DNA of 64,000 nucleotides from Akkermansia sp. (lineage in GTDB: Bacteria; Verrucomicrobiota; Verrucomicrobiia; Verrucomicrobiales; Akkermansiaceae): positions 6,153 through 70,152 of the forward strand of contig JAFWZG010000039.1 of NCBI GenBank assembly GCA_017517385.1, written 5' to 3'. The translations under genes and the position numbers were made by a program. Within the stretch, counting starts at the first letter, position 1, and each line of letters starts with the position of its first letter. Below, piece by piece: positions 26,689-41,002 of this stretch. Under the pieces are notes generated by a model. That model made no database searches and was not told the origin of the DNA. It saw only the letters and a list, made by a program, of their open reading frames with translations.

Positions 26689-28359
26689 TTAGCCCCTTCC
26701 CTCCAGCTTGGCGCGAATGAGCTCTGCGCACTCGGTGTGCCTGTAACGTTCAGCCACGCGAATGGGGGTGCTGCCATAGCCATTGGGCTTATCCGGCTGA
26801 ATGGTCGGAGCAGCCAGAAGCGCCTTCACACAGCCGGCATACCCCTTGTAAGCGGCGTACCAGAGAGGAGGCCATCCGTTATCGTTCGGTTTGTTCACAT
26901 CCGCACCGGCAGCAATAAGAAGCTTCAGGCAAGGTACCATGGTTTCACGCAGAGCAGATTGCAGAGGAGAACGGCCAGAGCTATCAAGCTTGTGAACATC
27001 CGCGCCGGCGTCTATTAGGGCCTTCAGGCATGCGGCATCATTTACTTCAAGTGCCAGGAAGAGGGGAGTCCTCCCGTTATCATCTGTACAATCCGGAGAA
27101 ACGCCGCCGCGGAGAATAGCTTCCACGCTTTGGGCATCCTTCCTCTCCACTGCGTCAAAAAGCATAGCAGGAGTCGCCTCCACACTATTAACTGCACTAT
27201 TAACCGGGGGCAATTCCTCACCCACAAAAAGGGTTGATAAAATCGTATTTGCGATATCCGAGACTTCGTCATCCTTGCTAACCTCCGCTAATGATGACTG
27301 CCACTTGCGATACGGAACCAGCATAAGAGCACCCTCAGCCGCAGCCTCCGGGAAGGACGCCCAAGTACGCGTCTTCAATCCGATACCGCCAGCCAACTGG
27401 GAGGAAATGTATGTCAACACGGGAGATGAACCTATGAGCAATACCATTTCAGGCTTTTCTTTAGCATCCGCCTGCTTGTCAATATCCTGTATGGCCGAGG
27501 CTATACGCTCCACGTCCCGTGTCAGCAATTTCTCGAAATCCGCGCGGTTAATATCGGCGGCTGTCAGTACTCCATTTTTAACAACACGGAAGACGCAGGC
27601 CTCAGCGGCCGACAGCCTGCGCTTCATCTCGCGCACACCGGCAAGAACAGCTGTAGCAGGAGACAACACACCCCCTGCCCCCTGAGCTTTAATCAATTCG
27701 CCCACATAAGAAGCCAACTTTTCATCAATAGCCTCACCACCCGCAGCATTTCCTAAATGAACACTGCGAGTTAAATACCCCTCCGCAGAACTGCGCACCA
27801 CATGGGCAATCTCCGGCGTACCACCGCCCCAATTCACCACCAGAGCACTTGTATTGAACGCCTTTGCGCCACTATAGCAACAATAGGCAGCGCCGGCTGC
27901 CTCCACCTCCGGCACAATCATTACCCGGGGAAATCCAGCGCTTAATGCGGCGGCAGACAACTCTTCCTTCTGAGCGGCCTGAAATCTTGCAGGACACGTC
28001 AGCACGGCCCCTGTAATTTCTACAGCCTCCTGATTTTCATCCTCCTTTACTCGGGCCAGAATCTTTTTCAGGAACTCACGCAGCAAATCACAGGCCTTGT
28101 ACTGCCCGAGCAGACACTTATTACTCCCCAAATGGGATTTGAACGCACGGCAATAAGAGGCCGGATTTTCCAAGCCCATCTCGTCAGCATCCTCACCAAA
28201 CACCAACTGCCCATCCTCACAGAGGAAAGCAGTAGAGGGAATAGGTGCATCATAGCGGCCAAGACGGAAGAAATACGGGCGACCGGTGTTCACATCAGCC
28301 GCCGCAAGGGTTTTTGACGTGCCGAAATCTATAGCAAGTGTTACTTCTTTTTTTGTCAT
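26689..28359 (-). CDS. Hsp70-like ATPase domain (degenerate) fused to ~5 ankyrin repeats (Hsp70-D)
   Basis: AIDFGTSKT, VLTCPARF..AQK, PEVEAAG, NWGGGTPE, GGEAID, RADFEKL, LIGSS. No substrate-binding domain. C-terminal GRTPLF, GRSPLQ and GWPPLW ankyrins. Confidence 0.85.
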   Translation of the reverse strand: MTKKEVTLAIDFGTSKTLAAADVNTGRPYFFRLGRYDAPIPSTAFLCEDGQLVFGEDADEMGLENPASYCRAFKSHLGSNKCLLGQYKACDLLREFLKKILARVKEDENQEAVEITGAVLTCPARFQAAQKEELSAAALSAGFPRVMIVPEVEAAGAAYCCYSGAKAFNTSALVVNWGGGTPEIAHVVRSSAEGYLTRSVHLGNAAGGEAIDEKLASYVGELIKAQGAGGVLSPATAVLAGVREMKRRLSAAEACVFRVVKNGVLTAADINRADFEKLLTRDVERIASAIQDIDKQADAKEKPEMVLLIGSSPVLTYISSQLAGGIGLKTRTWASFPEAAAEGALMLVPYRKWQSSLAEVSKDDEVSDIANTILSTLFVGEELPPVNSAVNSVEATPAMLFDAVERKDAQSVEAILRGGVSPDCTDDNGRTPLFLALEVNDAACLKALIDAGADVHKLDSSGRSPLQSALRETMVPCLKLLIAAGADVNKPNDNGWPPLWYAAYKGYAGCVKALLAAPTIQPDKPNGYGSTPIRVAERYRHTECAELIRAKLEGRG

Positions 28360-28387
28360 TGCAGGAAAAAAATATCTTTAGTCCATA

Positions 28388-30310
28388 TTAATATGCGGTA
28401 GCGGCAGCTTTCAGCAAAGCCTCACACTCAGCATGCCCATACCGCCCGGCCAAACTCAGCGCGGCATCTCCCTCCGGAGTCTGCTTATGAATATCAAGAC
28501 CACCAGAGGTAAGAAGCAGGCGCAGAACAGAGGCGGCCCCGGTACTGGCGGCATGGTGCAGCAGAGTCCAACCATGCTCATCCACGCGGTTCACATCTGC
28601 CCCGGCATGCAGAAGCAGCCTCAAGCAATCCAGCTTTTCAGCGAAGGCGGCGGACCACAGAGGGGTCCAGTTCAGCTCATTTGCGGCCTCTAAGCTTGCG
28701 CCGGAATATAAGAGATTACGGAGCACCCTGGCATGCCCGGCATGAGCAGCCTCGTGCATAGGAGTATTGCCGCCATAGCCGGCCTTCGCCGGGTCTATCC
28801 CGGGAGAGAGCAGCAGCATCCCCACAATAGCCTCCTGCCCACAGGCAGCGGCACGGCATAAAGGCAGTTCGCCTCGGCTATTGGGCCGGTTCACATCCAC
28901 TTGCCCGGCATTCAACAGCTCACGAACAACTGCCTGCTTATCAGTATAAGTTGCTGCCCAAAGAGGAGTCCAGCCCACAGCATCAGCTGCGTTCACGTCC
29001 CCGCCGTTAGCTATAAGCTTACGCAGCAACTGCACATCCCCCTCTGCTGCAGCGGAGACAACGTCCGCCGGGGTGGTGGGAAGCGGCTTCGCGGGGGGAG
29101 GCTCAGTAGCAGGGCCCGGAGGAACAGGAGGCAATGCCGGATCCGAAGGAACAGGCGGTAACACCGGCCCCGGAGGAACAGGCGGTAGCACGGGCTCTCC
29201 AACCGGCTCAGTCGGAACGGGCACGAACTCAGCCTCAAAAAGCTCTGTAAACAGCTTCTGCTGCTGAAGCTTAATACATGCGCCCTTTACTGACGCCCCG
29301 ACAGAACGGTACAGATGCACTTTAGCATTAGGAAGTTCCGCCGCAATCATGCGTCCGGCTGCAGGAATATCCGCCCCCGGTCCACTCAGGAGGATCTGCT
29401 TAGGAGGCGCGCCTCGAAAATTTGTTCTGACAAAGCGGCGCAAGGCTGCTCCGGCCTGCTTCATGTAAGGAGCGAGAAGCTCCTCATACTCCTCAACCGT
29501 ACCGGGCACCGTAAGCTTCTTCCCTCTCAAACTCAGGCGAATTTCAGCTTTACCCTCTGTGAGTAGCTGTTTTCTGAACTCGCGAACGAGATTCATAAAA
29601 CGGGGCCAGGAGAGCCCGGTCACCTTAGTCTGAACGGCCATTTTAGCAAGTAGGTGCATCGCGAGGGTATCATCCAGCTCTTCGCAGCCTACAGAGCACA
29701 CATTAAAAGAACGCCCCAGCTTACAGGAAGAAAAATCGGAGGCCACGGTCACCTGCACGGCTTCCAGAGATCCATCCCCCCAGAACAGCATCACAACATC
29801 CTGTGCAGCAAACACCTTGCGCCCGCCGTACATGCAGACGGAAACCAGCGCCTCGGACTGAGATATGAGCTCTACCGCAGGAAAACCAGCCGCCAGAGCA
29901 GCCTCCTTCAAAAGCTGCCGCTGTGCAGCGCTGAATGCGGCAGGACAAGTCAGCATCACGCCGGAAATCTGACGCCCCTCAGCCATAGAGGAGCCATTCA
30001 CTTTGCGAAGAATCCACGCAAGATGCTCCCGCACTAAATCAGCCGCGGTAAACTCCCCGAGAAGAGGTGCCGGGCTCCCCAGTTTCATCTTATATGCGCG
30101 GCAGTAACCGGCAGGCTCCTCAAGGCCCAGCTTCTCAGCCTCATCACCAAAACATAAGCGCCCACCCTTCATCAGATAAGCAGAAGAGGAGGCACAAGCG
30201 CCACTACTGCCCAAGCGAAAAAAACGCGGCTTCGCACCCGGCACAACCTCAGCTACAATAGATGAGGTTGTGCCGAAATCCACGGCCAGTCTGATATATT
30301 CGGCAGACAT
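28388..30310 (-). CDS. Hsp70-like ATPase domain (strongly degenerate), Pro-rich linker, ~7 ankyrin repeats (Hsp70-C)
   Basis: AVDFGTTSS, LTCPAAFSAAQR, SQSEAL, FWGDGSLE, GCEELDD, LSGPG. Polyproline linker. GWTPLW, GELPLC, GNTPMH and NWTPLW ankyrins. Confidence 0.85.
   Translation of the reverse strand: MSAEYIRLAVDFGTTSSIVAEVVPGAKPRFFRLGSSGACASSSAYLMKGGRLCFGDEAEKLGLEEPAGYCRAYKMKLGSPAPLLGEFTAADLVREHLAWILRKVNGSSMAEGRQISGVMLTCPAAFSAAQRQLLKEAALAAGFPAVELISQSEALVSVCMYGGRKVFAAQDVVMLFWGDGSLEAVQVTVASDFSSCKLGRSFNVCSVGCEELDDTLAMHLLAKMAVQTKVTGLSWPRFMNLVREFRKQLLTEGKAEIRLSLRGKKLTVPGTVEEYEELLAPYMKQAGAALRRFVRTNFRGAPPKQILLSGPGADIPAAGRMIAAELPNAKVHLYRSVGASVKGACIKLQQQKLFTELFEAEFVPVPTEPVGEPVLPPVPPGPVLPPVPSDPALPPVPPGPATEPPPAKPLPTTPADVVSAAAEGDVQLLRKLIANGGDVNAADAVGWTPLWAATYTDKQAVVRELLNAGQVDVNRPNSRGELPLCRAAACGQEAIVGMLLLSPGIDPAKAGYGGNTPMHEAAHAGHARVLRNLLYSGASLEAANELNWTPLWSAAFAEKLDCLRLLLHAGADVNRVDEHGWTLLHHAASTGAASVLRLLLTSGGLDIHKQTPEGDAALSLAGRYGHAECEALLKAAATAY
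29111..29191 (-). repeat. Three 27-bp tandem repeats encoding (V/A)LPPVP(PG/SD)P
   Basis: Plus-strand units AGGGCCCGGAGGAACAGGAGGCAATGC, CGGATCCGAAGGAACAGGCGGTAACAC and CGGCCCCGGAGGAACAGGCGGTAGCAC. Confidence 0.8.
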
Positions 30311-30472
30311 ATTATCTAAGTAATTTGTGAGAAAATCCGTTTAATACTAGGCGATTCCCAGCACCACACCGGATAAAGCTTACCGGATTCCCTTATACCA
30401 TACGCATTATCGCGTTGTCAATCATATTTTGAAGTGCATATACCCCCCTGCCGAAAAAATAGAACGCCAGCC

Positions 30473-30625
30473 TCACGAATTATTCTGGAACAAAGCGTTG
30501 TAGATACCACGCAGCAGCAGAGCAGCCAGAACAGTCACCACAAAACCACCACCGGCCTCCATGCGAATAAGCACAGCAGCCATTATCACCATAGCGAAAA
30601 TCATTATAAACAGTACTACTTTCAT
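30473..30625 (-). CDS. Unannotated 50-aa two-TM membrane protein (paralogue of 35396-35542)
   Basis: MKVVLFIMIFAMVIMAAVLIRMEAGGGFVVTVLAALLLRGIYNALFQNNS*. Shares MK.V....ME.G....L.LRGIY.A...N with the other copy. Below the ORF-track cutoff. Confidence 0.8.
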   Translation of the reverse strand: MKVVLFIMIFAMVIMAAVLIRMEAGGGFVVTVLAALLLRGIYNALFQNNS

Positions 30626-30751
30626 TGTTTTTTTTCTTTCTTTTTAAGTTTTTCAGGAGAGCGCCCTATGTGAGCTATCATATATTCTCCCCCTCTGCTT
30701 AAATAGACACAGCATCTCCATTCTTCGTTCATTCTTTTTTTATTCTACAGT

Positions 30752-30793
30752 AAAAAAACTAACACCGCCACTCCCGCACAAGGAGAGGCGGTG
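30752..30793 (-). terminator. Terminator after Hsp70-B
   Basis: CACCGCC-(T/A)-CTCC stem followed by TTAG and T7 on the minus strand. Confidence 0.7.
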
Positions 30794-30854
30794 CTGCAAA
30801 TACTGGTTAAAACAGCGGAAGTTACGGAGAATCCACGCAAGAAAACTTGCATGA

Positions 30855-32807
30855 TTATTTATTGAAAAGGCCGCTAAACCATTTCTTAATCTTCTTAGCA
30901 CGGAGATATGCAGAGGCCCCACTGACGCCGGCTTTGCTGGCGTCTTCCAGCAAGCGAAACCCTCTACGCTGAAGCTCAACAGAACCGGTCTGATCCGCTT
31001 GCTCCAGATAGAGCCGTGCCAATTCATACCCGGCGCACTTATCGCCCTTACTAAGGGCGATGGAATACCACTTCGCCGCGGCGTTCAAATCCTTTTTCAC
31101 ACCGTAACCCAGCCAATAGCAAAGGCCCATACGGCGGGCGGCTGAAGCATCCCCACGCTCTGCCTTTTTCTTGTATTCCGCTGCGGCCTGCGCCGGCTCA
31201 TAAATTATCCCCGCTTCGTCAATATACGGGGTCATTTTTTCCTCATTGAAATTTCTTTCACACTTCCAATCATATGCGCCACAGTTTTCGACCACGCCAA
31301 GATGACGCACAGCACTCATCTTTACAATTTTGGCCTTCGTGCTCCCCAGATAAATAGCATCATCCAGCCACTTATGAGCAGAAGTAAAGTGGAACTGCTT
31401 CAACATAGCCACGGGAGTGTCATCTATAATGCAGAGATGACAAGCCCCCAGCTGCGCCATAGCCTCCACGTTACCACGTACAGCCGCACGCCGATACCAT
31501 TTCGCGCAAAGAATATAATCCTTCGTCTTCTTGAGCATCACCGAGGCAGCGTTTTCCAACGCGCCGGGCTCGCCCCGCACCGCTGAGGCTGCCAACCAGT
31601 TCTCCACGCCATTCCTCAACAGCTCCTCTATTTCGTCAGCATAAGGTTCTTTCGGCTTAACCGGCTGCGCGGGAGGCGGAGGATAAGGCGTAGGCGCAGG
31701 CGTAGGCGTGGGGGGACGCTTCACCGGCGCCTCCGGGGCCTTTGCCTTTTCAGGCGGACGCGTTGTAAGAGCCGCTCCCATCACCACGGCTGCACGAGCC
31801 TTGTTCCACGTTCGGGCCGGCAAACCGGTAACCCGCTCAAGCTCCTTACGTATGCAGGGAATAAGCGCAGTACCGCCCACCAACACCAGCATTTCAGGCT
31901 GTAGGGATTCCGGAAGCCCGCTTAACAGGTTCTTTACGGCATCCGCCGCAGCGGATACATCAGAATGTATACTCTTCTCGAAATCAGCACGTTTCACCTG
32001 AGCAGAAAGCAGCCCACCGGACGTCACCTGATGAAAAGCCCCGGTCTCTGCAGAGGAAAGCACCATCTTCAGATTGCGAACGCCCTGAGCAAAACGCTGC
32101 CAGGACATATGCTCCGGCAGAGTCTTGCCCTCCAGTTGTTCCATGACAAGCTCACTGAGGCGATCATCAAACACCTCGCCGCCCATGCTGTTATTGCCGA
32201 AGGCTGCGCGCTTCTGAGCATTGATTTTCTTGCCACTGCGAGAAACGAGCGCCACGTCTAGTGTACCGCCACCCCAATCCACCACCAGGGCATTATTCTT
32301 AAACGCCTGAGCGCCACTGAAGTGGCAAAAGGCAAAGCCCGCAGCCTCCGGCTCAGTAATGAGTTTTACTTCCGAAAGCCCGGAGGCAAGCGCCGCATCC
32401 GTCAGCTGTTTTTTCTGAGCAGCACTGAAGTTCACCGGGCAGGTCAGCACAGCACCGCTGATTTTCATTTTATACAGAGTGGCATCATCCTTTACCCGGC
32501 GCACGAGGTGAGATAAGAACTCACGCACCAAATCCTGTGCTGTATAATGCCCCAGCACGGGCGCTGTACTACCCAGCTTCATCTTAAATGCACGGCAGTA
32601 GCAGGAGGCGTTCATCTCCGCCATATCGTCCGCATCATCACCAAACAAGAGGCTGCCGTCTTCCTGCAAATAAGCAGTTGTAGGAATCAAATCCGCATTT
32701 CGGCCCATTTTCAGAATACGAGGCTCGCCACGCTCATCAGCATAAGCAATGAGCGTCTTGGTTGTACCGAAGTCTATGGCTAAAGTGATGGAAGGAGAGG
32801 TACTCAT
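30855..32807 (-). CDS. Hsp70-like ATPase domain (intact motifs), Pro-rich linker, Sel1-like repeats (Hsp70-B)
   Basis: AIDFGTTKT, TEPEAAG, DWGGGTLDV, GGEVFDD, LVGGTALIP, AVVMGAA. Sel1 motifs AKWYRRAAVRGN and GLCYWLGYGVKKDLNAAAKWY. Confidence 0.88.
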   Translation of the reverse strand: MSTSPSITLAIDFGTTKTLIAYADERGEPRILKMGRNADLIPTTAYLQEDGSLLFGDDADDMAEMNASCYCRAFKMKLGSTAPVLGHYTAQDLVREFLSHLVRRVKDDATLYKMKISGAVLTCPVNFSAAQKKQLTDAALASGLSEVKLITEPEAAGFAFCHFSGAQAFKNNALVVDWGGGTLDVALVSRSGKKINAQKRAAFGNNSMGGEVFDDRLSELVMEQLEGKTLPEHMSWQRFAQGVRNLKMVLSSAETGAFHQVTSGGLLSAQVKRADFEKSIHSDVSAAADAVKNLLSGLPESLQPEMLVLVGGTALIPCIRKELERVTGLPARTWNKARAAVVMGAALTTRPPEKAKAPEAPVKRPPTPTPAPTPYPPPPAQPVKPKEPYADEIEELLRNGVENWLAASAVRGEPGALENAASVMLKKTKDYILCAKWYRRAAVRGNVEAMAQLGACHLCIIDDTPVAMLKQFHFTSAHKWLDDAIYLGSTKAKIVKMSAVRHLGVVENCGAYDWKCERNFNEEKMTPYIDEAGIIYEPAQAAAEYKKKAERGDASAARRMGLCYWLGYGVKKDLNAAAKWYSIALSKGDKCAGYELARLYLEQADQTGSVELQRRGFRLLEDASKAGVSGASAYLRAKKIKKWFSGLFNK

Positions 32808-32895
32808 CTTGTAAAATAATCAGTAGGTTTATAAGTTAACGAAAGCCCTTTTCAGCTTGTATGACGCCCCAACAGGCAGAATTGTTCATGCAATT

Positions 32896-35349
32896 TTAAT
32901 ATCTCGCACGCCTCATGGCCGCCTCCAGCAAGCGAACACACTCAGTGTAACCTCTGCTCCGAGCATACTCCAAATGCGTTTTCCCATATTGGGTTGCGTG
33001 TACATTTATATGCGGGTACTGTAATAAAGCCTCCACCATCGGCACGTCATTATTTTCTATAGCCACCCTAAGAAGGCTTTCACTAGCTGAATTGACCAAT
33101 TCATACTTGGCGCCGGGAGCTGTCACAAATATCCGTACAGCTTCCGCGTCATGCTTCTCCACTAATTTGGCAATGAAATAATTATCACAGCGGTATCCCT
33201 TCTGTACAAGCATTTGCAAATCCGCACCGTTCAATGTACCATGCATTATACGAGCCTCCAGCGCACTTGCAACAGGGCTACTGGTAAATACTTCACCATT
33301 CCAAGATGATACCAACCACTCATTACTTGCCATACCCGGATACTCCACGAACAACAACACAAACATAAAAGCACCTAGGAGTATCCCGCCCATCCCTATG
33401 AAGATGGATTTTGTATAGTCAGTATGCCTACGGCCACAATATCTGGCAAACATTATTAGGCCGCATAAATAGACCAACCCAATAAGCACCCCTAGCAATA
33501 CATGACCATTGTATATCATATAGGTCAGCACCAAGGCCAGTAGAACAAGCAGCAGCAACAACATCTTCGCCACATACCAGAACATGCGCAGCTTGGCCCT
33601 CTTACACCCGGCAACAGAAGCACGATAACATAACGACAGAGGCGATTTAGCCGTATGCAAAAAAAGCTCATAAAGTGCTTCCGGGTGCCCATTATCAGCA
33701 GCAGTTTTATACCACGTCAATGCATCATCGGAGCTCTTTGCCACAGCGGTGCCATTTTCATACATCTTAGCTATGCGGTACTGAGCATCAGTCACGCCCT
33801 TATCAGCCGCCCTTCGCAGCCAAAGGTATGCCTGACCGGCATCTGCGTCGACGCCGATACCATCCTCATAACAACGCCCAAGCGCCCACATACCATAAGG
33901 ATGCCCTTTCTCCGCGGACTTCCGATAATACCCCACCGCTTTCATGGAATCAGGGCTGAGCAGAGTCCCCTTCTCTGCCCCTATGCCTAGGCGGTACAGA
34001 GCATCAGCATTTCCGGCATCCGCCGCGCGCTGATATAGTCCGAGAGCCTTTTTCGCATCCTTTGTAGTGCCAATGCCTTCTTCATAGCAAAGGCCAAGGC
34101 TGAACATAGCGGGGCAATAATCACGGGCAGCAGATTTCGTGAGCCACATGACCCCCTCAGCTTCATTATGATTATTCAAGCAACTCTTCCCCACCTCATA
34201 CTGAGCGCGCCTGTAACCACTCTTGGCCAGCACAAGCAGTTTCCCGGAATCCTGAGGAAGCGGCTCGGAATCCACCTCCTCAGTCGCAGTCGCCTCTGAA
34301 TTAGCAAGAAGAGCTGCGCCCATTACCACAGCCTCACGTGCTTTTGCCCATGTACGGGCAGGAAGGCCTGTAACAGCCTCCAGCTCGCGGCGTATGCAGG
34401 GGATAAGAGCTGTACCCCCCACTAGTACCAGCATCTCCGGCTTACAATCTGCCGGCAGCCCCGCCATGAACTCCTTCACCGCGGCTACAGCAGCAGTCAC
34501 GTCTCTCGCTATCAGTTTTTCGAACGTGGCACGCTTCACCTTCAGAACAAGCGGGCTTCCTCCCACCACCATTCGCAATACACCCTCTTCACCGGCAGAA
34601 AGCGACACTTTCAGAGAGCGCACATTTTTCATCAGCTCCGGCATACTAAGGCTGCTCACCTCCATACGAGAAGCCAGCTCGCCCAGCACATACTCACCTA
34701 AACAATCATCAAAAACCTCGCCACCCACCGTATTGAGGCCAAAGGCATAGCGCCTATGGGAACGAATACTTTTCCCTTGGCGGGTAATGAGTGCTACGTC
34801 TAGCGTGCCACCTCCCCAGTCCACCACCAGAGCATTTTTTCGGAAAGCCTCTGTGGTGCAGCTGAAACAGAAGGCACTACCGGCAGCCTCCGGCTCCGTC
34901 ACAAACTCCACCTCCGGCAGCCCCGCGGCCAAAGCGGCTTCTCGCAGCTGGTGAATCTGCGCTTTGCTAAAATCCACCGGGCAAGTCAGCACCGCACCAT
35001 TTATCTGCACGCCAAGCATTGTGGCATCGGCCTTCACCTTCTGCAGCAAGTACGCCAGGTACTCCCGCACCAGCTCCTGTGCCGTATAACGCCCCAATAC
35101 AGGAACCTTGCCTCCCAGCTTCATCTTAACACCCCGGCTGTAATTCCCGGGATCTATCACAGCCATATCGTCCGCATCCTCGCCAAACAGCAGGCTACCG
35201 TCTTCCTGCAAATACGCGGTCGTCGGTATCAAATCCACATTTCGCCCCATGCGCATAACGCGGGGCTCGCCCTTGTCATCAGCGTAGGCCACAAGTGTTT
35301 TCGTCGTTCCGAAATCAATTGCCAGAGTAATACCCGAATGATAGCTCAT
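32896..35349 (-). CDS. Hsp70-like ATPase domain (intact motifs), ~6 Sel1 repeats, 3 TM helices, ankyrin repeats (Hsp70-A)
   Basis: AIDFGTTKT, TEPEAAG, DWGGGTLDV, GGEVFDD, LVGGTALIP. Sel1 e.g. AMFSLGLCYEEGIGTTKDAKKALGLYQRAA. Hydrophobic block MLLLLLVLLALV...LFVEYP. Terminal ankyrins. Confidence 0.88.
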   Translation of the reverse strand: MSYHSGITLAIDFGTTKTLVAYADDKGEPRVMRMGRNVDLIPTTAYLQEDGSLLFGEDADDMAVIDPGNYSRGVKMKLGGKVPVLGRYTAQELVREYLAYLLQKVKADATMLGVQINGAVLTCPVDFSKAQIHQLREAALAAGLPEVEFVTEPEAAGSAFCFSCTTEAFRKNALVVDWGGGTLDVALITRQGKSIRSHRRYAFGLNTVGGEVFDDCLGEYVLGELASRMEVSSLSMPELMKNVRSLKVSLSAGEEGVLRMVVGGSPLVLKVKRATFEKLIARDVTAAVAAVKEFMAGLPADCKPEMLVLVGGTALIPCIRRELEAVTGLPARTWAKAREAVVMGAALLANSEATATEEVDSEPLPQDSGKLLVLAKSGYRRAQYEVGKSCLNNHNEAEGVMWLTKSAARDYCPAMFSLGLCYEEGIGTTKDAKKALGLYQRAADAGNADALYRLGIGAEKGTLLSPDSMKAVGYYRKSAEKGHPYGMWALGRCYEDGIGVDADAGQAYLWLRRAADKGVTDAQYRIAKMYENGTAVAKSSDDALTWYKTAADNGHPEALYELFLHTAKSPLSLCYRASVAGCKRAKLRMFWYVAKMLLLLLVLLALVLTYMIYNGHVLLGVLIGLVYLCGLIMFARYCGRRHTDYTKSIFIGMGGILLGAFMFVLLFVEYPGMASNEWLVSSWNGEVFTSSPVASALEARIMHGTLNGADLQMLVQKGYRCDNYFIAKLVEKHDAEAVRIFVTAPGAKYELVNSASESLLRVAIENNDVPMVEALLQYPHINVHATQYGKTHLEYARSRGYTECVRLLEAAMRRARY

Positions 35350-35395
35350 AATGATATGTCAGGAGAGAGTGAAAGACGGCATAGCTGCGCCATGC

Positions 35396-35542
35396 TCAGT
35401 TTTTGTACATAGCACTGTAAATACCTCGTAAAATCAAACAAGGAACAACAGCAAAATAAGTGGGAGCACCTACTTCCATACATAAAAGCACGACAGCTAC
35501 TGTTAATATAACACCAATAATCGCAAATACAACAATTTTCAT
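35396..35542 (-). CDS. 48-aa two-TM membrane protein
   Basis: MKIVVFAIIGVILTVAVVLLCMEVGAPTYFAVVPCLILRGIYSAMYKN*. Start reassigned to 35542 by alignment with the paralogue. Confidence 0.8.
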   Translation of the reverse strand: MKIVVFAIIGVILTVAVVLLCMEVGAPTYFAVVPCLILRGIYSAMYKN

Positions 35543-35666
35543 CTCATTTTTCCTTTCTTTTTTATTTTTTTCTGGGAGCAAGCCATATAGGCTAACTTTT
35601 ATTCACCATTCTGGTTACTCCGACGCTATCACCTCCCGGCACGTTCAAGCATTTCATTCAGTCCAT

Positions 35667-35705
35667 AAAAAAAATCCCCAGCACAGGTAACCCATGCGCC
35701 AGGGA
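35667..35705 (-). terminator. Terminator after the second dynamin-like gene
   Basis: Minus strand TCCCTGGCGCA/TGTGCTGGGGA (with G-U pairs) followed by T8. Confidence 0.7.
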
Positions 35706-35798
35706 GTGTGATAAGGAAATGTAAAAACACTACATAATGACCCACTCAGAAACCACAAAAAATCTGATAAAAACAGGCGAGAACAATGGAAGTATTCA

Positions 35799-37424
35799 TC
35801 AGTGAGAAGAGGTAATCATGAGGTGAGAGTATACGGCACGCACTTTAGCAGCACATTCGCGGGCAAACTTATTAGGCACAAACGCAAGCAGGCCGGCAAT
35901 CTGCTGCAAGGTCTCCACATTATCAGCCGGCCGTGGCTGTGCTTCCGTAAGTACGAGGTTGGCACAGCGATCCACAATCTCCAACTGGGCAGGATTCAGC
36001 CAGCGGCTGCGCTCCTTCCAGTCCTGAAGAAGATACAAGGCATCGTCCATCAGCTGAACCCGCTCTGCTATGGAGCAGCGGAGCATATCAATGGAGAGTA
36101 ACGCTTCTTCCATGCGGGCAAGCTCAGCCCGGGCCCGAGAAGTACGCTCCTCCGTCTGCTTCCGCAGCTGAGTAGAGCGCAGCTCGTTAGCGACCTCGGA
36201 GAAGTAATCCACCTCCATTCGCTGAGCCTCAATAACGTCATCCAGAGCATAATTCACCTCTTGGAGGAGAGTCTGCACCTTACTGCGAATCTGCCGCAGG
36301 CTGATAACGGCCCTGCGCTTGAAGAATGAAGTATCCAACAGGTGGCGAAGGCGGGGGATGCCACTGAGCTGCATGGTCATAGCGGCGGCATCCTCCGCGG
36401 AGGCCGGCTGCTTATCATACAAGTAATGGAGCATCATGCGGAACGAGGAAAGGGGCAGCTCCAGCTCACGCAGAGAGCACCACAGGGCGTAAATGGCAGG
36501 GTATTTTTCCTGCCAGCGCACTTCATTGCGCTTTACTGCTTTTCGCAGGTCATCAGCAGTATCAAATGAGGCTAGTAAATCAAGCACGTCCAGCCAGAAG
36601 CTTCGCGGAGCTACAGCGGCAAGCAAGCCCAAAGGTGCGCTCACCGGCACAACCTCAGAAAGCAGGTGAGAAAACTGGCCGCGAAGAGTCGCCACATGCT
36701 CCTCCACGGTAGCAAGCGCCTCATCCGCCGAAGCCCCGGCGGAGGCATTCCAATAAAGGTCATCCCAGAGGTGCATCACGCCTACGCAGTTATACGTCTC
36801 ATACCCCTGCAGGCCCATCTGACGGAACTTTTCAAGGGCCTGAACGTCCTCTTCACGCCCAACATGGCCGAATACATAGAGCAGAGCATCCGTATTTCCA
36901 CCGCAAAGGAACTGCTGCGCCACGGCCTCATGGAAATCCACCGCGGCGCCGATACCGGGAGTATCAATGATATTCATCTGGCTCACGATGGGGGCATCGG
37001 AATAGAACTCCAGGTGGTTAACGCCTGCTACCATCTGCTCCACATCTGAGCCTTTTCCGCTCCATTCCTTGAGCCTAGCGAGGGGGTAACGCTCCGGCTG
37101 AGAGTTTTTCCAATAAGCAGAGAATTCCTCACAAGCGGAGCCGGTGCCGTAAGTAATGTGGTTCACGGTGGCAGTCGTTTCCTCGGTACCGGTGACGGCC
37201 AACTTCTTACCGACCAGCGCATTAATGATACTACTTTTACCCCGCTTCATGTAGCCGAACACGGCTATTCTGAAGGGGTTATCCATATTACGCACGAGCT
37301 CACGCAAGCCCAGCTCCCATTCATGCACCTGCACACAGGGGGCGAGCATATCAGCAAGCTTGAGCAGGTTCTGTGCATATTCCCGGCGGTAACGCACGGC
37401 ACCCAGTTCTACTTGTTCGGACAT
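35799..37424 (-). CDS. Bacterial dynamin-like GTPase (IniC/DLP2-like)
   Basis: G1 GYMKRGKSS, G2 TEETT, G3 IDTPGIG, followed by a helical coiled-coil stalk. Confidence 0.88.
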   Translation of the reverse strand: MSEQVELGAVRYRREYAQNLLKLADMLAPCVQVHEWELGLRELVRNMDNPFRIAVFGYMKRGKSSIINALVGKKLAVTGTEETTATVNHITYGTGSACEEFSAYWKNSQPERYPLARLKEWSGKGSDVEQMVAGVNHLEFYSDAPIVSQMNIIDTPGIGAAVDFHEAVAQQFLCGGNTDALLYVFGHVGREEDVQALEKFRQMGLQGYETYNCVGVMHLWDDLYWNASAGASADEALATVEEHVATLRGQFSHLLSEVVPVSAPLGLLAAVAPRSFWLDVLDLLASFDTADDLRKAVKRNEVRWQEKYPAIYALWCSLRELELPLSSFRMMLHYLYDKQPASAEDAAAMTMQLSGIPRLRHLLDTSFFKRRAVISLRQIRSKVQTLLQEVNYALDDVIEAQRMEVDYFSEVANELRSTQLRKQTEERTSRARAELARMEEALLSIDMLRCSIAERVQLMDDALYLLQDWKERSRWLNPAQLEIVDRCANLVLTEAQPRPADNVETLQQIAGLLAFVPNKFARECAAKVRAVYSHLMITSSH

Positions 37425-37447
37425 AGGAATATAGGTAAAAAGTTTGA

Positions 37448-37966
37448 TTAATTTGAAACGGAGGAGGATTCAGCGGGCATATCCAGCTCCACCTCCTGTT
37501 TGCGCAGGAGCTGAGAGCCTATTCTAACGCCCGTGGAAAATGAACGGGTAACGATGGGGAATGCGCCGGGGGCAAGCACGCGGTTCACCTTCACGGCCCG
37601 CTGCAAGGCAGGCGTCCAATCAGCGGAGCGCAGCAGCTCCACCCCCTGCGTTTTCAGCAAGGCTCGCAATTGATCTGCAATTTCACCGATGGCGGCTCGC
37701 TCCGCGGGAGGATAAACTGACAAGCTTTCCAGTTCATCCAAAAAATCCACCATCAGCAGTATGCGCGTTGCAGGGGCGTCAACAGGAGCCTGCAGGCCGG
37801 CAAGGCGGCTGAGAAGAAAATCCTGCAAGTCTCCCTCCGGCACTCTGCGGGCGATATCCTGCTGAAGGGCTAATTCATCCTCCAGAGCGCGCCCCTCGGG
37901 AACGGCCTCCTCAGAGGCGGTTCCCGGCTTTCCGGAGAAGAGGTATTTTGAGAGAAACTCCCACAT
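37448..37966 (-). CDS. GrpE-like protein
   Basis: Helical N-terminus, then LKTQGVELL...WTPALQRAV...V.....GVRIGSQLLRKQEVEL, matching the GrpE head pattern L...GV....FDP..H.AV...V.....GY.L..RLLRPA.V.V. Confidence 0.65.
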   Translation of the reverse strand: MWEFLSKYLFSGKPGTASEEAVPEGRALEDELALQQDIARRVPEGDLQDFLLSRLAGLQAPVDAPATRILLMVDFLDELESLSVYPPAERAAIGEIADQLRALLKTQGVELLRSADWTPALQRAVKVNRVLAPGAFPIVTRSFSTGVRIGSQLLRKQEVELDMPAESSSVSN

Positions 37967-37997
37967 GGTTCCAATTACTTCAGGCGTTTAAATGGTA

Positions 37998-39872
37998 TCA
38001 AGCAGGAAAAAGCACCGCAAGAACATCATTGAAGAGCTTCTTTCCGGCAGCCAGCTCAGTCTTGGCCTCACGCAGCTCGCGAGCTGAGATACCGGCTCGA
38101 TTCTGGATTTGCTGAGCCTCTCGCTGCAAGGCGGCCTCTTCATTCCTGAGGTACTCTTCCACGGATTCCGTAGCCTCGGTTGCAGCGCGATTGTGCAGTA
38201 AGCCTACAGAGCGGGAAATCTCCTGACCGGCCACATTCAGCGCGCGCTCCAGCAGGGAAATCAGAACCTGCTTTTGCTGCTTCAGGTTAGCCTCATTCAC
38301 ATTACTGCCGCCCTGTACACCACCCCAGATAGCACCGATTGCCGCACCGGCAAAACCGCCAAGAGCCGTACCAACAATCGGCACAACGGAGCCAACGATA
38401 GAGCCCACAACGTATCCGGCACTGGAGCCAAGAGATACACCCATGGAGGCACCCCGCACCTGCTCATAGAGCTTTGCCCCGTTCACGCCGTCCTCTATCG
38501 GGCTGAGCACGTTCGCCACTCGAGCGTCCGTCATGGCGCAATTCTCCACGGAAAGCTTACTTGCCGTAACCTCGTTTGTGAGACGGCAAATTCCTTTACT
38601 TACGCCCTGTGCATAGGTATCTACAATGGCCCGGAACTCATTCTTAAGAGACTCTAAGAGGGCTTCTTTCAACGGCAACTGCCCGGCAGAGCTATCACCC
38701 TCCAGAAGCTTCTTAAGACTGCCGAAATCCTGGCAAGCGTTCACCTTTGAGATAATCTCCATATACATGGCACCGCCCAGCCCCACAGAGGTGCAGCTCT
38801 GCATAGCCTGTTGATAGTTCAAATCCATCATACGCTTGAGGGGCGTGAGATAATTATTTTTAATATTCAGCTTCCACTCAGTGAAATCAGCTTTGGCTTT
38901 TTCCGCCTGCTTCATCAGTGCGTCCAGCTCTTCCTGAGCCTCCGTGTCCAGCATCTTGCTGCGAGAAGTAAGCAGAGTGCGGCAGCGCTGAAGCACCGGT
39001 GTCCACAACTGGGCCTGACGCTTCACGGCCATCATATTCTTCTCTATCAGCATCTTATCACAGCAGAAGGATTGCAGGTTCGGATACCCGCTGTCATCCA
39101 AATCATCCTCATCAGCATCCGGGTTAAACACATCCGCACAATCTAGGAGGAAATAGAGGCAGCCGGTCTTATAAAAATCCGGAAAGTTCTCATTAATGAT
39201 GGAAAGGTTATTCTCGCGACGGCGCTGAGCATCAGCCATCCCTATGGAGAGCACTTTGGTCTGCACGAAGAAGAGGTTGGACGTCACCTCCAGCACATCC
39301 TTAATGTACTGGCACTCCAGATTGCCGAAGGGGGCTTTATGATCCGTTACAAAGAATACGGCATCCGCCTGAGATACATAGCGATAAGTAATGGCTCGGT
39401 GGGCCTTGTACATACCGCCCAAACCGGGCGTATCTATCAGACAGAAACCACTCTTCAGGAACTCAGAGGGGCATGTTATCTCGATATAATCCACGCCCTT
39501 TTCATTCAAGGGATTGCCCTTTTCAGTACCATATGCCGTCACTTCACAAGCCGGAATGAAGAGGGGCTCCCTTGCAGGGGTGCCATCCTCTGCGGGCAGA
39601 AAGTGCACAGCGTAGGTAAGATGCTCACCGTAGGTCACCCGGTACACACAGGATGTGGCAATCCCGGTATCCACCGGCACAAGATTTTCCACCCCCAGAA
39701 GCGCGTTGACGAAAGAAGATTTGCCTTTCTTCACTTCACCCAGCACCACGATATTAAACAAGCCTTTCTCGAACTCATCAAGCTTGCTCATGTAATGCCC
39801 GGATACCGGCTCTCCGGCCAGTTTCTCATGCAATTTTGCCAGTTGTTTTAAAGACGATACGATATTTTTCAT
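37998..39872 (-). CDS. Bacterial dynamin-like GTPase (IniA/LeoA/DLP1-like) with glycine-zipper membrane paddle
   Basis: G1 GEVKKGKSS, G2 GIAT, G3 IDTPGLG. Hydrophobic Gly-rich hairpin GVSLGSSAGYVVGSIVG...GGFAGAAIGAIWGG. Confidence 0.9.
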   Translation of the reverse strand: MKNIVSSLKQLAKLHEKLAGEPVSGHYMSKLDEFEKGLFNIVVLGEVKKGKSSFVNALLGVENLVPVDTGIATSCVYRVTYGEHLTYAVHFLPAEDGTPAREPLFIPACEVTAYGTEKGNPLNEKGVDYIEITCPSEFLKSGFCLIDTPGLGGMYKAHRAITYRYVSQADAVFFVTDHKAPFGNLECQYIKDVLEVTSNLFFVQTKVLSIGMADAQRRRENNLSIINENFPDFYKTGCLYFLLDCADVFNPDADEDDLDDSGYPNLQSFCCDKMLIEKNMMAVKRQAQLWTPVLQRCRTLLTSRSKMLDTEAQEELDALMKQAEKAKADFTEWKLNIKNNYLTPLKRMMDLNYQQAMQSCTSVGLGGAMYMEIISKVNACQDFGSLKKLLEGDSSAGQLPLKEALLESLKNEFRAIVDTYAQGVSKGICRLTNEVTASKLSVENCAMTDARVANVLSPIEDGVNGAKLYEQVRGASMGVSLGSSAGYVVGSIVGSVVPIVGTALGGFAGAAIGAIWGGVQGGSNVNEANLKQQKQVLISLLERALNVAGQEISRSVGLLHNRAATEATESVEEYLRNEEAALQREAQQIQNRAGISARELREAKTELAAGKKLFNDVLAVLFPA

Positions 39873-39913
39873 AACGGTAAACTTTGCGGTTAAGTTTAAA
39901 AATTGTTTTAAGG

Positions 39914-40759
39914 TTAATACAGGTCCATATCCTCCGAGATGTTCATATCCAGGTCATTATCCACCCCCGAATCCGGCAAGTCGTCATCATCATCATTGAG
40001 GCTAGCAAGCCCCGGAGAGTACCCGGCAGCCAGAGCCGGCTCAAGTGTAGTATCATCCGCCATAAAGTCCTCAATCATGCCACCGATGGTCTCACACACC
40101 ATTCCCAACGCTCCACCGGGTGTCACAATTTCAGAAACCTGAGAGATAATGGAACCCGCAGAGGACAACAGAGAATCCGTAAAACTTTCATCCAGATTGG
40201 CTACCTCAGGAATATCCGGAGCTTCAGTGGTAGAAACCATGAAGAAGTTCGAGTCGGACCACGCATCCACAAACTGCTCGTACGGATAACTGCGGCAACA
40301 GCCGGAGCCGGGATCCGTCACTATCACCTGCACATTCTGAGGGTCTCTCACATCCACACCGGTCACAAGAAGGGCATGATCCGGCACCTGCCCCAAAGCG
40401 CTATCCTCATAAAACTCCTGCAGGGGTTCCCAAAGCTCACCGGAATCCACACCGACTATCACCTGATGCCCCTGTGCCAACTCATTCATAAGAGTGGCGA
40501 CGTTACCCGAGAGGAACGTCTGAGTGCTCACGCCGTGCAGTTCAAGCAGCTTACCGATATCCCCCATGGGGGTACCATTCGTTGTCAGCAATCCATGCTC
40601 AAAAGCTACATCCATAAGCTGCTGCTCCGTTACATCCACCCCGAACATATTGAGGATGAGCTGCTGGCTTTTAACAGCACAGGTATAATCGGTACCCTGC
40701 TGAATTTCATCGGGAGAGAACGGGCTGATAGTCTGGCCGTACACTGAATCTGTAGTCAT
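39914..40759 (-). CDS. C39-like papain-fold cysteine peptidase with acidic C-terminal tail
   Basis: QQGTDYTC (oxyanion Gln and Cys), DHALLVTG (His), TDPGSG (Asp). Tail DDDDDLPDSGVDNDLDMNISEDMDLY. No signal peptide. Confidence 0.8.
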   Translation of the reverse strand: MTTDSVYGQTISPFSPDEIQQGTDYTCAVKSQQLILNMFGVDVTEQQLMDVAFEHGLLTTNGTPMGDIGKLLELHGVSTQTFLSGNVATLMNELAQGHQVIVGVDSGELWEPLQEFYEDSALGQVPDHALLVTGVDVRDPQNVQVIVTDPGSGCCRSYPYEQFVDAWSDSNFFMVSTTEAPDIPEVANLDESFTDSLLSSAGSIISQVSEIVTPGGALGMVCETIGGMIEDFMADDTTLEPALAAGYSPGLASLNDDDDDLPDSGVDNDLDMNISEDMDLY

Positions 40760-40907
40760 AATCTTAGCGTAAATGATAATGTTTTGCGGATGTGGGAATG
40801 AATTCGCTCAGCATCCGAACTGAGTCGAATTGTAATACCGTCTATCTTCTCTGACACTGAATATCAGTTTTTATTCAAAAAAATTTTACCCCATAGCTTT
40901 GTCCAAC

Positions 40908-40936
40908 ATATTACAATACACCAGAACATGAGTCAA
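40908..40936 (-). promoter_or_regulatory. Promoter of the peptidase-dynamin operon
   Basis: Minus strand TTGACT, 17 bp, TAATAT. Confidence 0.55.
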
Positions 40937-40939
40937 CAT

Positions 40940-40972
40940 AAAAAACCGCCTCTCCTGCGAAAGGAGAGACGG
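40940..40972 (-). terminator. Terminator of the dehydrogenase gene
   Basis: Minus strand CCGTCTCTCCT/AGGAGAGGCGG followed by T6. Confidence 0.8.
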
Positions 40973-41002
40973 CGCTGTGTATACAGGTGAAGCTTAAGAG
41001 AA

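Follow-up and report, generated by a model that had tools for sequence, protein, structure and literature searches.

The window analysed here, 64,000 nucleotides (nt) of an Akkermansia sp. genome (assembly GCA_017517385.1, contig JAFWZG010000039.1, positions 6,153 to 70,152 of the forward strand), contains two small open reading frames (ORFs) for hydrophobic proteins of 50 and 48 amino acids (aa), named micro-A and micro-B. They stand close to four genes, Hsp70-A to Hsp70-D, in which the nucleotide-binding domain (NBD) of a truncated Hsp70-type ATPase is joined to Sel1 and/or ankyrin repeats. The relevant genes all lie on the minus strand, and their order is given from high to low coordinates (Table 1). 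The micro-proteins are read as recent paralogous hairpins of the inner membrane that serve as dispensable, co-expressed partners of the Hsp70 ATPases, and we hold this composite reading with moderate confidence. An interaction between the micro-proteins and the Hsp70 ATPases, considered alone, is put forward only tentatively.

Paralogy, distribution and copying of the cassette

Alignment of micro-A with micro-B gives 20 identities (42%) and 33 positives (69%) over 48 residues without gaps (BLASTP, E = 3e-12), and both proteins have the motifs MK.V, ME.G and L.LRGIY.A...N. An earlier reading made from the letters of the window (the sequence-only reading) had taken the two ORFs for full-length paralogues with these motifs, each preceded by a terminator and by about 55 nt of homologous DNA. 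This description is borne out, and the upstream homology is longer than was noted. At the DNA level the homologous block reaches from TGAACG (30731 for micro-A, 35647 for micro-B), about 105 nt before the ATG, to the stop codon. The leaders carry TGAACG-N17-GTC, a GAATA.A.G.TAGC block and an A-rich tract without a Shine-Dalgarno sequence. In both copies the last 30 nt before the ATG (30626-30655 and 35543-35572) consist of 73% A; upstream of the 1562 long ORFs of the genome the value does not exceed 67%. In this genome of about 2.66 Mb only about 9% of the long ORFs are preceded by a Shine-Dalgarno-like motif; the G+C content of the window is 52%. No conserved RNA structure was found in the micro leaders (-0.2 kcal/mol).

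The family was found in 5 of 154 species representatives of the genus, with two copies only in the genome of the window. The four sister species that also carry it (G132, G142, G113 and G133) share the order saccharopine dehydrogenase, terminator, micro-A, Hsp70-C, Hsp70-D and aspS, and their locus is without the C39-like, dynamin-like and GrpE-like genes, micro-B, Hsp70-A and Hsp70-B. True orthologues of Hsp70-C, with 84-89% identity, occur exactly in the genomes that have micro-A (5/5 compared with 0/149). A word-index search of 5.8 billion clustered proteins and a HMMER search of 1.84 billion representatives returned the two paralogue clusters and one orthologue of 76 aa that has lost its stop codon. 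No relatives were found in JGI metagenome contigs, IMG/VR or GenBank phages, and the micro-proteins had no meaningful matches in Pfam, NCBIfam, PHROGs, PADLOC or the PDB sequences. Judged by these searches, the family appears to be an orphan that is confined to five species of one genus and evolved recently.

Two further matches were set aside. One extra hit in the large protein searches was a repeat protein and was considered spurious. A weak six-frame match recurred between micro residues 26-46 and ORFs of about 570 aa. These encode a polytopic membrane protein, to our eye similar to an ion transporter, and the match was regarded as chance similarity between transmembrane (TM) segments.

The site of micro-A can be compared with that of congeners without the micro-protein. 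Many of these (for example G131, G084, G118, G120 and G034) have a divergent Hsp70 pair after the saccharopine dehydrogenase gene, and the intergenic region of 235-260 nt holds a terminator and a conserved TTGACA-N15-TGn-TATAxx promoter of the extended -10 type and no small ORF. The promoter block of 43 nt is 93-98% identical across the five species that have the micro family. Since this ancestral promoter lies downstream of micro-A, micro-A with its A-rich leader is an insertion of about 230 nt between the terminator of the saccharopine dehydrogenase gene and the promoter of the pair. Congeners that lack the micro-protein, with an Hsp70 pair of only 30-35% identity, keep the promoter in this position as well.

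A tree of 29 NBD sequences assigns Hsp70-C to the "first" genes and Hsp70-D to the "second" genes of this old syntenic pair, each set forming a clade (92/89 and 96/93), while Hsp70-A and Hsp70-B group together (84/78) outside the old-pair clade (clade support 100/99). Forcing Hsp70-A to group with Hsp70-C costs 29.8 log-likelihood units and is rejected by the approximately unbiased (AU) test (AU p = 0.00035). The tree therefore indicates that the duplication of C and D is older than the micro-protein, that A and B arose by a separate tandem duplication, and that only a cassette of about 250 bp with promoter, leader and ORF was duplicated between the two sites. The sequence-only reading had proposed that a whole unit of one micro-protein and two Hsp70 genes was duplicated, a proposal that the NBD phylogeny overturns.

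The block with the C39-like gene, the first dynamin-like gene (DLP1), the GrpE-like gene, the second dynamin-like gene (DLP2), micro-B, Hsp70-A and Hsp70-B (30830-40940) is an indel in comparison with the four sister species. On both sides this island is flanked by diverged copies of the terminator of the saccharopine dehydrogenase gene (30752-30797 and 40945-40975) and about 35 nt before them. The copy after Hsp70-B is homologous to the other flanking copy and also to the terminators that directly precede micro-A in the four sister species. The flanking copies suggest that the island entered or left by recombination at the terminator site.

The TGAACG-N17-GTC element has identical spacing in the two leaders (30726-30731 with 30703-30705, and 35642-35647 with 35619-35621) and resembles a promoter for a sigma factor of the extracytoplasmic function (ECF) type, which is a speculative assignment. 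No ECF-type regulon emerged, and the idea is a guess: in the genome the extended motif was found only at the two micro genes, and the short motif at chance frequency. Terminal inverted repeats of an insertion resembling a miniature inverted-repeat transposable element were looked for and not found, the only matches being runs of A or T.

Coding status and fold of the micro-proteins

The micro ORFs are probably translated and functional, and their substitutions look like those of coding sequence. Identity between the paralogues is 56/73/48% by codon position, and the Nei-Gojobori method gives 22 synonymous differences over 35 sites compared with 37 non-synonymous differences over 106 sites. The resulting ratio of non-synonymous to synonymous change (dN/dS) is about 0.3-0.45 between the paralogues and 0.25-0.75 between orthologues. 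The codons of the LRGIY motif vary synonymously between the copies and in G113 (CTG>TTA, CGT>CGA and ATC>ATT). In three species the ORF is free of indels, while the flanking DNA has them. The sequence-only reading had made conservation of the frame in relatives a test of its claim; the frame is kept with coding-type substitutions in three of the four other species but is shifted in G133.

Both proteins show two hydrophobic segments in hydropathy analysis. An AlphaFold model of micro-A, built from seven aligned seq­uences, is a helix-turn-helix hairpin with helices at residues 2-24 and 28-47 and a mean pLDDT (predicted local distance difference test score) of 82.6, and the membrane hairpin first proposed from the letters is thus supported by both approaches. 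The expectation that annotation pipelines would miss such small genes was not confirmed, in that the exact micro-A protein and a 61-aa form of micro-B with a TTG start are present in NCBI nr, and micro-A and micro-B have been called on 15 and 14 contigs respectively. The TTG start of the 61-aa form lies within the A-rich leader and is probably mis-called.

Possible roles beside the Hsp70 genes

According to the sequence-only reading each micro-protein leads an Hsp70 pair. This is the case for micro-B, which is separated from Hsp70-A by 46 nt, but the gap between micro-A and Hsp70-C is 162 nt and contains an independent conserved promoter, so that only micro-B strictly leads its pair. No terminator-like structure was found downstream of either micro ORF; the two intrinsic terminators, both strong, are situated upstream.

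In the proposed mechanism, transcription would continue from the micro genes into the Hsp70-NBD genes and, given such read-through, micro-B would be the first cistron of an operon with Hsp70-A and Hsp70-B. The peptides might then anchor or modulate the Hsp70 repeat ATPases, which have no substrate-binding domain, at the inner membrane. A possible contact is that of the micro peptide with the segment of three TM helices in Hsp70-A. The micro-proteins would not be core parts of the machine. The second Hsp70 pair (A/B), which lies in the dynamin island and arose by its own duplication, received a copy of the cassette at its head. A functional tie of the micro-proteins to the Hsp70 ATPases is favoured by their perfect co-distribution with the Hsp70-C/D lineage, by the second copy heading another Hsp70 pair that was not co-duplicated, by probable co-transcription and by the segment of three TM helices in Hsp70-A. 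The membrane adaptor suggested by the sequence-only reading is one possible role.

Several observations weigh against this reading and against a core role. The micro-protein is absent from the clusters of G009, G034, G028 and G014. It is also missing in G003 and G059, at their loci with Hsp70-NBD fusions, and in the cluster of a distant Verrucomicrobia metagenome-assembled genome (MAG), the one named relative obtained with the Hsp70-A NBD. All other syntenic Hsp70 pairs are likewise without a small hydrophobic ORF at the position of the micro gene. Since clusters of C39, dynamin, dynamin and Hsp70 genes exist elsewhere without the ORF, the peptide is not needed for the core function. Hsp70-B, Hsp70-C and Hsp70-D have no TM segment to pair with, and the peptide would be nearly all buried in the bilayer, with little surface for binding to ankyrin or Sel1 repeats. 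Constraint on the ORF itself is only moderate. Its DNA identity is not above that of the regulatory flanks in G142 and G113. In G142 (L054, 9749-9979) the stop codon TGA has changed to AGA, which adds an extension of 26 residues and gives the protein of 76 aa, and in G133 (L056, 9714-9962) a deletion of 23 nt removes the turn and shifts the frame.

The last of these points also speak for a proto-gene, that is, for a duplicated element that is really regulatory DNA of the Hsp70 genes, a promoter with its 5' leader, and for a young ORF inside it that has little function or none, is perhaps translated and is nearly neutral. The frameshifted copy and the copy without a stop codon, the near equality of ORF and non-coding flanks in G142 and G113, dN/dS values up to 0.7-0.77 in some pairs, and a family that is limited to 5 of 154 genomes and arose in an intergenic region count in favour of this explanation; the bias in codon position is by itself non-significant (chi-square on the 56/73/48% counts, p about 0.15). 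However, synonymous changes clearly exceed non-synonymous changes between the deeply diverged paralogues, both helices remain hydrophobic and LRGIY is preserved through synonymous codons. The start codon stays ATG or GTG, 14-15 independent contigs of the species carry an unbroken frame, and the conservation is not explained by RNA structure, since none is conserved. A nearly neutral ORF is considered unlikely.

The position of the ORFs raises the question of regulation by the nascent peptide. Bacillus subtilis MifM-yidC2, Escherichia coli SecM-secA and Vibrio VemP are regulatory nascent peptides upstream of membrane-biogenesis genes, and the micro ORFs are like them in being small, in having a TM segment at the N-terminus and a conserved C-terminus, and in lying just upstream of genes that could be controlled. 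In this alternative, insertion of the nascent hairpin, or its failure, would tune the translation or transcription of the downstream Hsp70 genes by way of the C-terminal LRGIY.A. The ORFs lie directly upstream of Hsp70 genes with no intervening terminator, their best-conserved residues stand near the C-terminus, 7-12 codons ahead of the stop codon, the A-rich leader is unusually strong, and the locus with its dynamin-like proteins is of a membrane-stress type. On the other hand, the spacer from the stop codon of micro-B to the start of Hsp70-A has no significant hairpin (z = -0.66), so that the downstream ribosome-binding site is not sequestered as in the known systems. The distance from micro-A to Hsp70-C, which retains its ancestral promoter after the copy, and the lack of covarying structure in that spacer are also difficult to reconcile with such control. 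No arrest motif is known in them, the C-terminal tail is different in G113 and the loss of the stop codon is tolerated in G142. Regulation of this type is improbable.

The sequence-only reading had also considered holin-like effectors. A membrane-damaging peptide, similar to a type I toxin or a holin, would depolarise the membrane under stress or infection, and the Hsp70 and dynamin-like proteins would be handlers of the peptide or unrelated neighbours. The peptides are hydrophobic, present in two copies and, at about 50 aa, shorter than the 60 aa used to delimit such toxins. Each copy has its own upstream region right after a terminator, and the dynamin-like neighbours resemble the LeoA/LeoBC models of PADLOC. 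Against this, the proteins of the window matched PHROG families only at E = 2.5 and 9.6, and nothing was matched in PADLOC, IMG/VR or GenBank phages; the 76-aa orthologue matched one PHROG family of unknown function at E = 0.007. The neighbours form neither a lysis cassette nor a phage context and consist of Hsp70-NBD fusions, dynamin-like GTPases, aspS and saccharopine dehydrogenase. The A-rich leader appears to have no structure and would then contrast with the structured and tightly repressed leaders of type I toxins, and a sequence scan flagged no antisense promoter. PHROGs, the phage collections and the gene context give the holin-like label no support, and a membrane-damaging peptide in general is regarded as very improbable.

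A C39-like gene stands at the head of the island (39914-40759), and the turn has EAGG or EVGA in both paralogues. The micro-proteins could thus be imagined as precursors of the double-glycine type, cut by this stand-alone peptidase at E-x-G-G/A (residues 23-26) with release of a peptide of about 24 residues. However, micro-A occurs without a C39 gene at the locus in all four sister species, and the C39/dynamin/Hsp70 clusters of congeners have no micro-protein. G113 has EASG at the turn. The double-glycine leaders of class II bacteriocins are amphipathic, unlike the presumed leader here, which would be a TM helix of 20 residues. Cleavage of this kind is extremely doubtful.

The reading of the micro-proteins as membrane partners of the Hsp70 ATPases can be extended to their origin. 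A micro-protein might have been born within the last few speciation events in an intergenic region, been captured as a membrane receptor or activator of Hsp70 ATPases that have no substrate-binding domain, and then been copied as a cassette that wired the second Hsp70 pair and the dynamin island into the same control. This whole sequence of events is decidedly unlikely; if true, a gene could be traced here from its de novo birth to its functional recruitment by a chaperone-like membrane machine. Should the peptides prove to be translated and to bind the Hsp70-NBD repeat proteins, no small membrane subunit of an Hsp70-type ATPase would have been described before them, and they would offer a handle on where the poorly understood Hsp70/dynamin clusters act. 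Whatever the function, the family offers a clean and datable example of a small bacterial gene that was born in an intergenic region and spread as a promoter-plus-ORF cassette. The general importance is probably modest because the family is tiny and appears dispensable for the core system, and the larger system of Hsp70 and dynamin-like proteins is the more significant object.

Known systems and layout of the locus

The micro-proteins would count among the small inner-membrane proteins of bacteria in general, and the family searches placed them in no described family. In E. coli, KdpF, AcrZ, CydX and MgtS are small accessory proteins of the inner membrane whose genes belong to the operon of the partner or adjoin it. 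The likeness lies in a length of 30-50 aa, an almost completely membrane-embedded chain, a lineage-restricted distribution, dispensability and a position at the head of or next to the partner operon. The sequences are unrelated, and the micro-proteins have two helices instead of one and a presumed partner, an Hsp70-NBD repeat ATPase. To our knowledge no small membrane subunit has been described for such an ATPase.

The Pmp3/YqaE proteins (UPF0057, PF01679) are also hairpins of about 50-55 aa with two TM helices and a short turn. Their motif differs from the ME.G ... LRGIY.A of the micro-proteins, and Pmp3 is widespread while the micro family is found in five species. Six family members compared with Pfam-A at E <= 10 gave no match to PF01679, the only hit being a chance match to DUF7312 (E = 2.7).

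The pairing of a specialised Hsp70 with a membrane-anchored partner of its own, encoded by a neighbouring gene, has a parallel in E. coli HscC, an Hsp70 paralogue whose adjacent genes encode the membrane-anchored J-proteins DjlB and DjlC. These are J-domain proteins of several hundred residues, whereas the micro-proteins lack a J-domain and have hardly any soluble part. A search of the literature found no description of a small TM protein together with clusters of Hsp70 and dynamin-like proteins.

For the surroundings of the micro genes, the nearest published operon parallel is cj0411-cj0413 of Campylobacter jejuni, with two adjacent genes for dynamin-like proteins (DLP1/DLP2) followed by a Sel1 (HcpA-like) gene and a suspected role in membrane repair or envelope stress (PMC6104087). 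No small TM protein is described for that operon (PMC6104087). The locus in the window differs in that Sel1 is fused to the Hsp70 NBD and in that the C39-like gene, the GrpE-like gene and the micro-protein are added.

Table 1. Features of the locus in the window, from high to low coordinates
Feature	Position	Strand	Remarks
C39-like peptidase	40759-39914	-	head of the island
Dynamin-like GTPase 1 (DLP1)	39872-37998	-	
GrpE-like gene, 172 aa	37966-37448	-	between the two dynamin-like genes
Dynamin-like GTPase 2 (DLP2)	37424-35799	-	
Intrinsic terminator after DLP2, upstream of micro-B	35667..35705	-	stem of at least 11 bp; -21.1 kcal/mol; z = -3.9; followed by U8
Promoter and leader region of micro-B	35543..35647	-	ungapped alignment to the micro-A counterpart, 30626-30731
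micro-B, 48 aa (MKIVVFAIIGVILTVAVVLLCMEVGAPTYFAVVPCLILRGIYSAMYKN)	35542-35396	-	ATG at 35542 homologous to the start of micro-A
Hsp70-A: NBD, Sel1 repeats, three TM helices (aa 590-667), ankyrin repeats	35349-32896	-	
Hsp70-B: NBD and Sel1 repeats, no TM helix	32807-30855	-	sister to Hsp70-A in the NBD tree
Intrinsic terminator after Hsp70-B	30752..30797	-	-25 kcal/mol; z = -4.6; followed by U7
Promoter and leader region of micro-A	30626..30731	-	conserved in G132, G142, G113 and G133
micro-A, 50 aa (MKVVLFIMIFAMVIMAAVLIRMEAGGGFVVTVLAALLLRGIYNALFQNNS)	30625-30473	-	
Extended -10 promoter (sigma-70-type) of Hsp70-C/D	30391..30433	-	TTGACA 30421-30416, N15, TGG, TATAAG 30397-30392
Hsp70-C: divergent NBD and ankyrin repeats	30310-28388	-	orthologue of the "first" gene of the old syntenic pair
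Hsp70-D: NBD and ankyrin repeats	28359-26689	-	orthologue of the "second" gene of the old syntenic pair
aspS	beyond Hsp70-D (lower coordinates)	-	

Some further features of the Hsp70 genes and the island can be added. The ATP-binding motifs of the syntenic "first" and "second" Hsp70 genes (26689-30310, L057-L061) are already degenerate in congeners without the micro-protein, where DWGGGTLD is replaced by, for instance, VNWDAGRMEC and INWSADRLEY. The degeneracy is therefore older than the micro-protein. In Hsp70-A, residues 590-667 (33349-33582 in the window) form three strongly hydrophobic helices between the Sel1 and ankyrin parts, so that the ankyrin repeats could sit across the membrane from the ATPase. 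Of the clusters examined, only that of this genome has the GrpE-like gene; no gene stands between the two genes for dynamin-like proteins in G009, G034, G028, G014 and the Verrucomicrobia MAG.

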